DNA from: an uncultured Pseudomonadales bacterium
GTDB taxonomy: Bacteria > Patescibacteriota > Microgenomatia > UBA1400 > PJMF01
Reading direction: 5' to 3'
NCBI GenBank assembly: GCA_964645645.1
Contig: CAZYBC010000006.1
Span: forward strand, 1 to 63,224
Length of the DNA: 63,224 nucleotides
Below the pieces are notes generated by a model that made no database searches, was not told where the DNA came from, and was given only the letters and a program-made list of their open reading frames with translations. Shown one piece after another: positions 34,237 through 54,093 of this stretch. Positions within the stretch are counted from its first letter, which is position 1; every line of letters begins with the position of its first letter. A program made the position numbers and the translations under genes.

Positions 34237-37200
34237 TTAACGATAAAGACTTCTCATAGCAGCTATATAAGAATTTTCAGGATCAAACATTAAAGCAATT
34301 TGATAATATTCCTCTGCTTTATCAAAATTTTCTTCTTCTTGATGAGTACGACCCAGGTGGGTATAAAAAGCCGCTAAAAAACCATCTTCAGGTGTCATAA
34401 AATGAATATTTTGCCTCGCTTCTTGATAGCTTGGTTCTAAAAATCCTAAATGATCAGTTTCATTAACAAAATCTAAAGCTGTTTTAATTGATTCAATAGA
34501 ATATTTACTAAAAAAATCATTGTTGGGAACATTATCATTAGTAGCCTTAGTTAAACTATATCTATCTGCTGTTCTTGGATCGTAAACATTTATTTGATTT
34601 ATTGAAGCATCGTTATATAAAGCAGAAAGATGAAATCCTGACAAAGCAGTTCTTATCTGATTTCTATCTTTACCCAAATTATATAAAACTGAAATTGCAT
34701 AAGCTGTTTGAGCAATACAGTCATATTCATTACTCTCTGAAGGCTGTAAAAAAGAGTAATGAGGATGCTTAACATATGAATAATCACCTGAAGGAAATGT
34801 TAAAACATTTTGTCTTAATAATTGAAAAATTAAATCTTCTCTTTCTCTTTTAACTAATGGACTTTCATCTTTTTCTAAATCTTTTATTCTTTCTCTAGCT
34901 TGATTAATTTCTTCTACTCCACTAGGATTTAATCTTTGATAAGCAGTTTGTAAAGCATGATAAGTAACTAATCTCATTAATTCTTTTTCAGGATTTTCTG
35001 CCTCTATTGAAAAAATCTCTTCATTCCCAATTTTAGGCATTAATTCTGCTAAAATCTCTTTTGCTGGTTTTGATGAATCAAAATCTAAATCTTCCACTCC
35101 TAAAACATTAACTAATTCTGTTAGTTGTTCTGCAAAAGTTGGTTGAAATTGTTCTAAAACACCAGTTTCCTTATTTTCTTCTATTTTACTTTCCGTTTCA
35201 CTTCTTCTCTGCCAATCTTCTACACTGCCAATCGTAGAATAATTAAAGAAAACAAAACTATCGGCCTTAATCATACCTTCAATATCTGTTGGTTCCTGAG
35301 AGATTAAACCATCAAAGCCTAAATTTTTCATGAATTCAGCAAAATAAAAATTTTGTGATGAGCCTAATCCAACTTCCATATTATATTCAGGGATAAATCT
35401 GGTAGCTAAAACATAGTGAATTTGTCTATTCTCTTGATCTGGTTCTTTGGCAGCAATTGCTACTAAAAAATCGTAATATCTTTTCTCAAATTCAAACATC
35501 ATTTCTTCTATACCGTCTGGTTTAGAAATAGCCTCATATTGAGCTTTTTTCTGTGCAAACTTAGCTTGCATAAATTCTACCCAAGCTTTAAATAAAGGTT
35601 CTGGGAGAGACTGGCCATTACGTAAATCTAGCATTTTGGCTTGATAAGGCACTAAAGTGGTTAATACTCCAGTTTCTGTTTGAAGATTTTGTTTAGCTCG
35701 TAAATTAGCATATTCTTCTGCTAAAGCATGATTATCTGTAGTATAAAGTCCCGCTCCAATAGTATATGAACCATCTGGAGCATCTTCATCTGCAAAAAAA
35801 TCATAATTTTCATCTACTATTAATTTTTTACTAGCACCATGATAAAGCTTAAAAAGCTGATCTAAATTTTCAGCTGTAATTTGACTAGGATCAGTTTTAC
35901 CCAAAACGAGAGCTTCAATTTCTTGATCTCCAATTTTGATCTTAGTAGAACTAACTTCTTCTGTTATTGACGTTTCACCAGTTTCTTCCTCTTCTTCTGG
36001 CCTCACCAACCTGCTTACATCACCACTAATTCTTTTTACATATAGAGCAATTTCTTCTAATTGAATATTGATTCTTTCAAATACGCCGGCCAACCTGTTG
36101 GATGGTTTAACTTGCAAAGCTTCTAACTCAGCGGAAATGAGCTTGAGTTCATTTTTTAGAGTAGTTAAATCTGTAATAGCTTGGTTTTGAGCGGAATCTT
36201 GGGCAGCAGTAATTTGACTGATAGCTTGATCAATGGTTTGGAAGGCTTCAGCCATTTCAGCGATGGCTTGGGCTTTTTCAGCCTCGGTTTTTTTGAGCAT
36301 GGCATCGGCAGTTTCGGCTAAGGCGTCTAAAGTTTCTTGAGCAGGAGCGTTGTCAAAAGTATGATCATTAGCCATATTTTTAAGCACGGCAACTTGAGCT
36401 TGAGCAGTTTGGTTGAGAGCTTGCAAGTCGGCTTTATCGGCTTCAACAGAAATTGTATTTGCTAATGATTGAGCGATAAAAAAACTAGTAAATTCAGTAT
36501 TAAATTCACCAAAGGCTATTGGGCAGCTACTACAGCCTTTGGTGTTGTAGGAGCCGGTGCCGGAAAAATTTAAGGTTACATCTTCTAAACTTACTTTATT
36601 ACCATCAATTTTAATTTTAAAATATTGATTAATTATTTTAATTACATCACCATTCTTAATTTCTACACTACCATAAACTCTTTGACCACTTGGATTCTGG
36701 ACATTATAAAGAAAAGTACCATTGGTAGAAGTATCTACTAAAAACCATTGGCCCTGTGAATTATTAGAAATCTTAGCATGTCTACTAGAAACTCTTTCAT
36801 CATTAATCTGATAATTTCTTAGACCTCCATCTCCTCTACCAATAGTAATAGTTGTAGGAGTAAAGGTAGGCTGAGCTGCTTGCGCTTGAGGAGATTGAGC
36901 TGCAGATTGGCTGTAACCACTGGGCTGCTGGCTGGCTGGCTGTTCACCAGCATAAATAGTTTCTTTAACAATATCTCCTTTTCCACCATAATGCTCACCC
37001 ATACCTCGGTCAATGTTAATTACGCGGCCATCGTGATAAATAGGCTGACTCTTCCCTAATTTTTGATTATGACCATGATAAATTCTGTTTTGACCTTTAT
37101 TAGCAGCCGTAGCAAAAAGCTCTAAATATAAGTCTGTTGTTTCTGGATTATTCAAAAACTGGCTATCTTTCTTATCTAAAGTTAATATATCAAATAAACG

Positions 37201-54093: not shown

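Follow-up and report, generated by a model that had tools for sequence, protein, structure and literature searches.

The window analysed here, the whole stretch of 63,224 nucleotides, carries a giant open reading frame on the minus strand at positions 34237..54093. It encodes a protein of 6,618 residues, identical in sequence to the cluster representative P0002, in a single reading frame that runs for 19.9 kb with no internal stop codon. The G+C content of the gene (31–39%) lies inside the range of the remaining contig, and the composition is even along its length. Out-of-frame stop codons are frequent in low-G+C DNA. That the gene is an artefact, either an assembly chimera or a pseudogene read-through fusing several genes, is very improbable. 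The protein does form a singleton cluster on one contig, and the gene is split in some relatives, with at least six ORFs in L001, fragments of 688 and 4,843 residues in L002 and of 1,779 and 3,004 residues in L009. Set against this are the long open frame at such a G+C content, the even composition and a conserved order of elements in intact ORFs from independent assemblies. The assembly chimera that the earlier note had raised as a possibility is rejected, because intact relatives turn up repeatedly in CPR assemblies of independent origin and the gene's two flanks are syntenic with those of relatives. We conclude that the giant ORF is a real, intact gene of a CPR/Patescibacteria bacterium of the Microgenomates/Pacebacteria type.

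The gene directly upstream (54100..55806, minus strand) is separated from the giant gene by 6 nt and encodes an operon partner of 568 residues that begins and ends with a hydrophobic segment and contains fn3/PurAcPhosph_N and Big_13 domains. Beyond it, at 55868..57600 on the same strand, domain matches and synteny identify a 140-residue membrane protein and the type IV pilus alignment proteins PilO and PilN, the latter two 2.2–3.5 kb upstream of the giant gene and in the same orientation. The PilN–PilO–fn3 arrangement is conserved upstream of the giant gene in four related loci (L001, L003, L007 and L015), together with MurJ where the flank reaches that far. Downstream, synteny defines two conserved genes, p170 (33007-33519, plus strand) and SIMPL (32133-32987, minus strand), which occur as a pair in L003, L017 and L018, with p170 present also in L002 and L009. 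Between these and the giant gene lies an ORF of 155 residues (33687-34154, minus strand) that is unique to the window among the loci compared and has no family match. CPR bacteria use the type IV pilus apparatus for host contact. Because the giant gene is co-operonic with pilN, pilO and the gene for the fn3 surface protein, the giant protein of this subclade probably works with that apparatus. A pilus link as a family-wide feature was rejected: the pilN/pilO neighbourhood is confined to one subclade, different genes flank P0003 and the members of subfamily 2, and other members adjoin SufBD, GroEL, Dus, RuvC or a LysM-M23 peptidase gene.

Anchor, exodomain and hydrophobic block

The protein begins with a signal anchor at residues 38–60 (53914..53982, minus strand; Kyte-Doolittle hydropathy 2.53), preceded by 10 Lys/Arg residues and followed by the motif QDIRQQAS, which is common to relatives. 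Next comes a Cys-rich exodomain at residues 98–800 (51694..53802, minus strand) that contains 78 Cys and has no Pfam match. Four Cys-paired helical units of the form C-x10-12-C can be read at residues 900–1130 (50704..51396, minus strand), and similar Cys pairs occur in relatives. In total, 88 of the 91 Cys of the protein fall within residues 1–1297, and the next 4,556 residues are free of Cys. Given the Cys content of 0.69% in the other 32 ORFs of the window, the probability of such a skew is about 3.5e-14.

Hydropathy and homology define a Gly/Ala-rich, nearly uncharged hydrophobic block at residues 1221–1460 (49714..50433, minus strand), and a homologous block is found in all full-length relatives. 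It contains one strongly hydrophobic stretch, residues 1227–1263, followed by a Cys pair at 1285/1297; by hydropathy there is no strong hydrophobic helix in the window protein beyond residue 1263. An AlphaFold model of the block (residues 1150–1500, 10-sequence alignment) reached a pLDDT of 32.5, was uninformative and was discarded. A helical, coiled-coil-like linker at residues 1480–1975 (48169..49656, minus strand), 54% of which is Ala, Glu, Lys, Leu or Gln, connects the block to the ATPase and is conserved in the family from about residue 1770 onward. The earlier note had described this part of the protein as a transmembrane anchor, a Cys-rich region, Cys-paired helical units, a hydrophobic Gly/Ala segment and coiled coils ahead of the motor, and each of these elements was recovered.

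The SecA-like motor

The family-defining module occupies residues 1977–2860 (45514..48165, minus strand) and carries the motifs LTTAGGKS, VDELQ, GAVTG and GRGGATGD of an SF2 ATPase; the ATPase proper spans residues ~1990–2740 and is followed by a long helix. Residues K63, D175 and E176 are invariant across a 10-sequence family alignment of the motor, and its Walker A (LTTAGGKS) and Walker B (VDELQ) motifs are in register with those of E. coli SecA. The AlphaFold model of the motor has a pLDDT of 77.8 and a pTM of 0.66. Its best PDB match in Foldseek is B. subtilis SecA (E 5e-10), and SecA entries have the top TM scores, 0.38–0.41 compared to 0.24–0.34 for other SF2 helicases, with alignments that cover 760–840 columns.

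Several features of the module resemble SecA. It has a DEAD-type NBD1 with a Walker A and a DE-containing Walker B, and its Walker A, like that of SecA (MRTGEGKT), has no leading Gly or Ala. In the model, Walker B and motif III are separated by an insertion of ~240 residues, at the place that the preprotein-binding domain takes in SecA, and a 42-residue helix and then a second helix follow NBD2, in keeping with the long helix that follows the second RecA domain. The module also differs from SecA: the TM score is only ~0.4, there is no profile-level homology and the motor is embedded in a chain of 6,618 residues. No wing domain, two-helix finger or C-terminal Zn-binding tail was identified in the motor, and the window protein gave no Pfam match to SecA_PP_bind. 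PF07517 was not matched at E<=1 in the window protein or at E<=0.001 in five relatives, and searches of the motor against Pfam, NCBIfam, PDB sequences and PDB profiles/HMMs all returned no match. Alignment of the family profile to E. coli SecA with hhalign paired only Walker A and B and was not significant (P ~0.01, probability 4–5%).

The earlier note's call of a SecA-like ATPase therefore stands on the side of structure, where SecA is the best PDB match, and not on that of sequence profiles; the model, rather than any sequence match, suggests that the module is a highly divergent SecA-like two-RecA ATPase. The best matches among predicted structures are DUF3638 ATPases of giant viruses (Klosneuvirinae “ubiquitinyl hydrolase 1” proteins), which match the motor model as well as SecA does or better (E 3e-13, TMq 0.43). 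They differ in being eukaryotic-virus proteins of unknown function with no sequence match to the window protein, and we know of no membrane anchor in them. Together with a TM score of only ~0.4, this match means that the motor may instead be a helicase-like SF2 ATPase acting on some other substrate.

Family core and C-terminal cassettes

An exhaustive phmmer search of the ATPase module against 1.84 billion proteins returned 23 cluster representatives, 16 of them at E<1e-30 and nearly all 3,000–7,842 residues long. The family is present in 14 of 185,579 GTDB species genomes and at six further loci in JGI metagenomes, and those GTDB and JGI loci that come with lineage information are CPR MAGs. 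Judged from these sequence collections, the family is rare and CPR-restricted. One relative, P0003 (6,575 residues), is intact on eight contigs from different samples. A word-indexed homologue search with the motor returned one fragment only, even with a 10-sequence profile, and the same kind of search with the C-terminal 579 residues found no homologue.

The earlier note had proposed collecting homologues through the SecA-like domain and comparing their domain strings. This comparison reveals a fixed core, composed of the signal anchor, the Cys-paired exodomain, the Gly/Ala block, the helical linker, the ATPase, an FHA domain and a CxxC helical module, around which exodomain and C-terminal enzyme cassettes are swapped between members. 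The cassettes of the window protein are of the HD, PPP phosphatase and DUF3990-like kinds, and those of relatives include Fic (P0006), an M48-type peptidase and peptidoglycan hydrolases. The window protein is thus a membrane-anchored mosaic around a very divergent SecA-like ATPase and a member of a small, CPR-restricted family.

Almost nothing beyond the FHA domain was detected in the window protein with Pfam, NCBIfam, PHROGs or PADLOC, and these searches gave no support to a reading as a phage polyvalent protein or a defence system, which was rejected. The enzymatic and binding domains that the earlier note had read beyond the motor fared unevenly. The FHA domain (residues 5749–5820; 36634..36849, minus strand) is confirmed at 49.7 bits against a PF00498 cutoff of 20.7; it is also present in relatives, and the region has weak TagH- and YscD-type matches in NCBIfam and Pfam. 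The conserved CxxC plus helical module that follows it (residues 5854–6010; 36064..36534, minus strand) is defined by homology with relatives. The HD claim is supported by module alignment: a shared cassette at residues 3184–3729 (42907..44544, minus strand) has the HD at 3413–3414, and its H..HD..H..D ligand residues are invariant in a four-sequence alignment. Pfam HD scores of 17.5 (window protein) and 13.8 are under the cutoff of 22, and no PDB profile was matched. Likewise, the PPP-type metallophosphatase cassette (residues 5372–5706; 36976..37980, minus strand) is supported by motifs in the expected order (GDVH at 5377, GDYFDR at 5450 and GNHE at 5492) and by homology, as the Pfam Metallophos score of 17.3 in the window protein (cutoff 21.5) rises to 45.4 bits in the homologous module of P0007. 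The PPP cassette of the window protein also weakly matches the model of the Legionella Wip phosphatase.

Other calls are more tentative. The ART-like claim corresponds to a cassette at residues 6051–6330 (35104..35943, minus strand), for which alignment reveals an H/Y/E-type pattern (YHG, GLY[TA]T and DGVI..E) conserved in four copies, consistent with a possible ART fold; its DUF3990 score is 14.4 bits against a cutoff of 32.2, relatives do not match DUF3990, and no PDB profile was matched. The proposed J-domain is a possible J-like segment at residues 4925–5000 (39094..39321, minus strand; HPD at 4964) with no Pfam DnaJ match. A phmmer search of the PDB gave two matches only, both J-domains in register through the HPD (E 0.74 and 1.5). 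What had been called TPR is a single sub-cutoff motif at residues 6574–6607 (34273..34374, minus strand), one repeat at 25.6 bits compared to a cutoff of 27.8. Two calls found no support in profile or repeat searches. The putative transglutaminase/papain-like site C6459/H6488/D6505 (34534..34776, minus strand) gained no profile support, with no family match at E<=1 and no homologue found; what speaks for it is the C-29-H-17-D spacing, read from the sequence, and the fact that C6459 is the sole Cys in the last 760 residues. The acidic repeats were rejected as a repeat array, as neither self-BLAST nor TRF detected a significant internal repeat.

Compartments, candidate mechanisms and related systems

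After the last Cys on the N-terminal side, 11 family members together contain 43 Cys in 52,785 residues (0.08%), an 8-fold depletion when set beside the 0.69% of the remaining ORFs of the window. Some of those that remain belong to recognisable motifs, namely the conserved CxxC and a weakly C39-like region that holds the single post-module Cys of P0007. This family-wide depletion after the anchor region counts toward export, and it strengthens the intuition of the earlier note that enzymes of cytoplasmic type lie beyond a region of disulfide type. The boundary marked by Cys differs from that of the membrane, because the conserved Cys pair follows the strongest hydrophobic helix. The motor needs ATP and must therefore work in a cytoplasm, most simply that of the producer. 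In P0007, P0009 and P0010, a strongly hydrophobic helix late in the chain precedes peptidoglycan hydrolases (VanY, Amidase_2, SLT and, weakly, CHAP), which most simply implies a cytoplasmic middle and a re-exported tail. These far C-terminal hydrolases have no signal peptide of their own and so must be exported somehow.

The best reading, to which we give somewhat less than an even chance, is that the protein exports itself from the producer with the help of its motor. In the producer's membrane the giant protein would be held by its N-terminal anchor and hydrophobic block; the Cys-rich part would lie outside and serve as an adhesin or in host recognition, and the motor would sit on the cytoplasmic face, where ATP is available. 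The SecA-like motor would push unfolded polypeptide through a membrane channel, for which SecYEG and the hydrophobic block of the protein itself are candidates; the polypeptide would be the Cys-free string of C-terminal cassettes, either from the same molecule or from a neighbour. This step would be gated by FHA and phosphatase, and the exported cassettes would act at the cell surface or at the host-cell contact; their entry into the host cytosol is a possible further step. Self-export is weakened by the failure of PF07517, HMM and hhalign searches to place the motor in SecA, by the TM score of ~0.4 and the equal or better DUF3638 matches, by the low pLDDT of the hydrophobic-block model, by the position of the Cys pair after the strongest hydrophobic helix and by the restriction of the pilN/pilO neighbours to one subclade.

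Alternatively, the protein may be a membrane-anchored cytoplasmic hub, which we consider rather unlikely. The chain after the hydrophobic block would then stay in the producer's cytoplasm, where the ATPase would remodel or export other substrates, such as pilus-associated or surface proteins, and FHA, PPP and HD would carry out phospho-signalling below a site of contact that the exodomain senses; only the tails behind an extra transmembrane helix in some relatives would go outside. Such an arrangement agrees with the ATP requirement of the motor and with the lack of a strong hydrophobic helix past residue 1263 in the window protein. In secretion machines, FHA domains typically belong to the cytoplasmic parts, and weak TagH- and YscD-type matches were obtained; the late helix ahead of VanY/Amidase_2, SLT or CHAP in P0007, P0010 and P0009 puts middle and tail on opposite sides. 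A topology with transmembrane segments only and the bulk in the cytoplasm is also predicted for 46% of long Omnitrophota proteins. However, a cytoplasmic location gives no reason for a family-wide, 8-fold Cys depletion over ~53,000 residues, given that this genome has 0.69% Cys elsewhere, and shuffled cassettes of effector or toxin kinds (Fic, and a PPP with a Wip-like match) resemble effector arrays more than housekeeping signalling.

The earlier note had instead proposed a tether: its exodomain would bind the host, its Gly/Ala block would insert into the host's membrane, and the string of enzymes would be threaded into the cytosol of the host. There, J-like, PPP, FHA, ART-like and protease modules would find their targets. 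The components of this model, an anchored giant with a Cys-rich exodomain, a SecA-like motor and an enzyme string, were retained, but the host step meets difficulties in the position and ATP requirement of the motor, the late helix of relatives and the FHA domain, and we regard it as unlikely. Because the motor precedes the cargo in the chain, it would either have to be the first to cross or have to act from the side of the producer; the late helix and peptidoglycan hydrolases of relatives fit poorly, the J, ART and protease calls are weak, and no conserved cognate immunity gene was found among the loci compared. Nevertheless, the Cys-rich, receptor-type part gives way to ~5,300 residues with hardly any Cys, as expected for cargo that crosses membranes unfolded, and among the cassettes are kinds that serve as effectors in other systems (Fic in P0006; the PPP, by its weak Wip-model match). 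The 180-residue uncharged Gly/Ala stretch may resemble membrane-inserting regions of translocating toxins. Transfer of giant epibiont proteins to a partner bacterium has also been reported in “Chlorochromatium aggregatum”.

Type VII secretion proteins of the EssC/EsaA type combine FHA domains, membrane segments and a translocation ATPase, and EsaA or YhgE/Pip has a large exodomain between hydrophobic segments. The likeness to the giant protein is one of layout only: its ATPase is SF2/SecA-like and not FtsK/SpoIIIE, and no homology was detected. Large multi-effector toxins such as MARTX share several enzyme modules per polypeptide, mosaic cassettes, an almost complete lack of Cys and a possible Cys-protease module. 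MARTX toxins have, to our knowledge, no built-in ATPase and no N-terminal membrane anchor, and in the window we found no RTX/glycine-repeat family or CPD match (Pfam, NCBIfam), no tandem repeats and no T1SS genes. Polymorphic toxin systems pair a variable C-terminal toxin with an adjacent cognate immunity gene. Here the cassettes are mosaic and the window-specific 155-residue ORF follows the giant gene, but this ORF has no family match, and in L017 and L018 no comparable intervening gene follows.

The closest parallel is found in giant proteins of Omnitrophota and Actinobacteria, in which divergent SecA DEAD and preprotein-binding domains follow transmembrane anchors, type II secretion or pilus genes adjoin and self-export has been proposed as the role (West-Roberts et al. 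2023, bioRxiv 10.1101/2023.11.21.568195; 2026 preprint 10.64898/2026.06.07.730766). Both cases involve ultrasmall or host-dependent bacteria and proteins of many thousand residues, with a divergent SecA-type motor that follows transmembrane anchors and in which no canonical wing is recognised; the enzyme domains are mixed, with Ser/Thr phosphatases and C39-like peptidases among them. Secretion or pilus genes lie nearby, although the PilN/PilO of the window are kept in four related loci and absent in others, and the same question arises of whether the bulk of the protein is inside or outside. The window protein differs in coming from CPR, in a motor too divergent for PF07517 and in having no detected dockerin or CAZyme content; the CPR core adds FHA and the CxxC module, and its exodomain is N-terminal and Cys-rich. 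No Omnitrophota sequence was among the 23 phmmer matches to the motor. The combination, which the earlier note did not recognise as a characterised system, is not wholly new, because a giant, anchored protein with a divergent SecA motor and nearby pilus genes has already been described in those phyla; the CPR family itself was not found described in the literature searched.

The family is a tractable case for the study of how CPR bacteria, which account for much of bacterial diversity and live attached to hosts, manipulate those hosts or feed on them, since it is well defined: a variable exodomain and a fixed anchor–motor–FHA core are joined to enzyme cassettes that can be exchanged. Where compartments are to be predicted in other giant proteins, the abrupt change from Cys-rich to Cys-free sequence is a simple marker. 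Should the motor export its own tail, this would be a new way to move very large proteins across a membrane and would explain the recurrence of SecA-like domains in giants of unrelated ultrasmall bacteria (Omnitrophota and CPR). We think it quite improbable that one polypeptide forms a complete contact-dependent delivery machine, in which host-binding exodomain, membrane-inserting block, SecA-derived motor, FHA/PPP gate and exchangeable cargo would together thread that cargo from the episymbiont into the host cell. If true, such a machine would represent a secretion or injection principle distinct from the numbered secretion systems.

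A giant gene and its rare family

The giant gene (34237-54093, minus strand) is a single open frame of 6,618 codons with 0 internal stops, and its G+C content of 31-39% along the gene lies inside the contig's own range. Since the contig makes up the entire window and the public collection lists the protein as a singleton, there is no second assembly of exactly this gene. An exhaustive phmmer search with the motor module (aa 1977-2860) retrieved 23 cluster representatives among 1.84 billion. The assembly chimera considered in the earlier note is disfavoured because nearly all the strong relatives are giant (3,000-7,842 aa) and carry the module in a similar place, because one of them, P0003 (6,575 aa), is unbroken on 8 contigs from differing samples, and because both flanks are syntenic with relatives. 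An artefact is a very improbable explanation of the giant gene.

Upstream, the order PilN-PilO-fn3 protein recurs in the related loci L001, L003, L007 and L015, preceded by MurJ in those whose flank reaches far enough. Downstream, p170 (33007-33519, plus strand) and SIMPL (32133-32987, minus strand) recur in L003, L017 and L018, and p170 is additionally present in L002 and L009. Between these two conserved neighbours and the giant gene, immediately after the latter, lies a 155-aa ORF (33687-34154, minus strand) that matches no family and has homologues in none of the related loci. Its position is where an immunity or chaperone gene for a variable C-terminus would sit. Two class A penicillin-binding proteins and a GH18 glycosyl hydrolase are encoded nearby (17383-19803, 27220-31171) and MurJ adjoins pilN, so that cell-wall genes surround the giant gene. 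About 240 bp separate two divergently oriented tRNA-Met (CAT) genes (1212-1281, minus strand; 1524-1598, plus strand).

The gene is broken up in some relatives, into at least 6 ORFs in L001, 688 + 4,843 aa in L002 and 1,779 + 3,004 aa in L009. Such splits may reflect frameshifts from sequencing, decay or true multi-gene versions; the contig naming of L001 suggests, without establishing, a long-read assembly. In a more distant subfamily, a domain scan of the upstream ORF in L011 revealed a LysM + M23 peptidase gene in place of pilN/pilO, and L013, L014, L022 and L023 have an equally long ORF (361 aa) at that position.

The family is rare (14 of 185,579 GTDB species genomes and 6 JGI metagenome loci) and was seen there in CPR-type genomes only. 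Where a record title is informative, it names Paceibacterota, Parcubacteria, Gottesmanbacteria or Pacebacteria. Several GTDB records (among L002-L005 and L008-L013) are titled "uncultured Pseudomonadales" or "Gammaproteobacteria" despite CPR-like gene content, and these titles look like placeholder taxonomy.

Conserved core and exchangeable cassettes

Every full-length member has the same core. A QDxRQQAS motif comes after the N-terminal anchor; the hydrophobic block contains the strongly hydrophobic stretch VVAPxAAxVxLPxAxASGAG and, further along, a conserved pair of Cys; and the core also includes a long helical linker, the motor and at least one FHA domain. BLAST similarity to all members is limited to aa 1770-2890 of the window protein.

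The N-terminal part was largely described correctly in the earlier note. The transmembrane anchor spans aa 38-60, with an N-flank rich in K/R. Directly after it lies QD(I/N/L)RQQAS (53880-53913, aa 61-71), kept in almost all members and seen at the N-termini of P0003, P0004 and P0007-P0010; it could serve as a signal for processing or sorting. The Cys-rich region is confirmed, as 88 of 91 Cys precede aa 1298 and a 4,556-residue run without Cys follows (P ~ 3.5e-14 against 0.69% Cys in the other window ORFs). The Cys-paired helical units can be read in the sequence at aa 900-1130, and the hydrophobic segment corresponds to a Gly/Ala-rich block at aa 1221-1460, for which the AlphaFold model was useless and was discarded. 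The Cys boundary and the strongest hydrophobic helix do not coincide. Between modules, short amphipathic motifs of Trp/Phe-Gly type recur at aa ~1741, 2959 and 3041 (GGWFGRGG, GWWATGLIGS..QWWSGG, GNWFGGIAKDLGFG); relatives have GFALxKAW, and P0003 carries three copies of such motifs. They could be membrane-interface segments.

Among the C-terminal domains that the earlier note had proposed, FHA holds (49.7 bits). The PPP phosphatase is supported by its motifs, GDVH, GDYFDR and GNHE in order, and by a homologous cassette in P0007 that passes Pfam (45.4 bits). The HD domain has a metal-ligand pattern invariant in the shared cassette but is sub-threshold in Pfam. Three calls are weak. For the J-domain, the sole two PDB matches are J-domains in register, though at E ~ 1 and with no Pfam match. 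The ART-like (DUF3990) region conserves an H/Y/E-type pattern but scores 14.4 bits with no PDB profile match, and the TPR is a single repeat slightly below cutoff. The proposed C-H-D protease has nothing behind it except residue spacing and C6459 being the sole Cys of the last 760 residues, and no array of acidic repeats was detectable. The HD, PPP and DUF3990-like cassettes differ in distribution, each being shared with its own subset of relatives and sometimes present twice; relatives also have further cassettes, namely Fic (55 bits), Peptidase_M48 and peptidoglycan hydrolases. A CxxC + conserved helical module (36064-36534, aa 5854-6010), usual but not universal in full-length members and usually downstream of FHA, contains two of the three Cys remaining in the last 5,300 residues.

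The motor and the side of the membrane

No sequence method used gave a family assignment for aa 1977-2860. An AlphaFold model from a family alignment of 10 sequences (28-48% identity) reached pLDDT 77.8 and pTM 0.66. In it, a RecA-like domain (Walker A LTTAGGKS, Walker B VDELQ) is followed by an insertion of ~240 residues, motif III GAVTG, a second RecA-like domain with GRGGATGD, and a 42-residue helix. In a Foldseek comparison with the PDB, B. subtilis SecA comes first (E 5e-10); TM scores are best for SecA entries (0.38-0.41) and reach 0.24-0.34 for XPD, DinG, MDA5, RIG-I and UvrB. An hhalign comparison with E. coli SecA aligned the Walker A/B region alone, in correct register and not significantly. 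The SecA-like ATPase of the earlier note therefore stands on structure and not on sequence; "SecA-like" is a structural statement about a model, with homology undemonstrated. Giant-virus DUF3638 ATPases fit the model at least as well as SecA. The best-matching predicted viral structures (queried with aa 1990-2740) are giant-virus DUF3638/"ubiquitinyl hydrolase 1" proteins (E 3e-13, TMq 0.43), and this match hints at a wider class of SecA-like/SF2 motors inside very large multi-enzyme proteins.

After the last N-side Cys, 11 members have 43 Cys in 52,785 residues (0.08%, ~8-fold below the window's other ORFs). This depletion favours export of the C-terminal part, as do the Cys-poor surface proteins of the same genome and the placement of some remaining Cys in recognisable motifs (the conserved CxxC, a C39-like region of P0007). 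A cytoplasmic middle is favoured by the motor's need for ATP, by FHA domains being typical of cytoplasmic faces of secretion machines, and by P0007, P0009 and P0010, in which VanY/Amidase_2, CHAP-like and SLT domains, whose site of action is the cell wall, come after a late helix that is strongly hydrophobic. A hub for signalling or export that stays in the cytoplasm permanently would agree with the ATP and FHA arguments and has the Cys depletion against it; we regard it as rather unlikely.

Motor-driven export of the Cys-free C-terminal part from the producer fits most of the evidence, and we infer it tentatively. The producer would synthesise the chain and retain it in its own membrane through the anchor and hydrophobic block, while the Cys-rich exodomain would lie outside. 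At the cytoplasmic face the motor would drive the unfolded C-terminal polypeptide out via a channel, a step that FHA and phosphatase would control. The earlier note had the hydrophobic segment insert into a host and the ATPase thread the enzymes into the host cytosol; the anchor, Cys-rich region and hydrophobic block that it drew on are present, the effector calls survive in part, and we consider host injection distinctly unlikely.

Comparison with known giant proteins

Giant proteins that have many transmembrane segments have been described from Omnitrophota and Actinobacteria. They carry divergent SecA DEAD and preprotein-binding domains without scaffold and wing, genes for type II secretion or pili lie near them, and self-export has been proposed for them (West-Roberts et al., bioRxiv 2023, 10.1101/2023.11.21.568195; 2026 preprint, 10.64898/2026.06.07.730766). 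The window protein has their plan in another phylum and poses the same inside-or-outside question. It differs in a more divergent motor, invisible to Pfam, and in having a core (with FHA and a CxxC module) and a set of cassettes of its own. The literature searched contained no description of this CPR family, so the earlier note's view that the system is not a characterised one stands for the family but not for the plan. The protein is mainly of interest as a compact model for SecA-like motor function in giant proteins of host-dependent bacteria.
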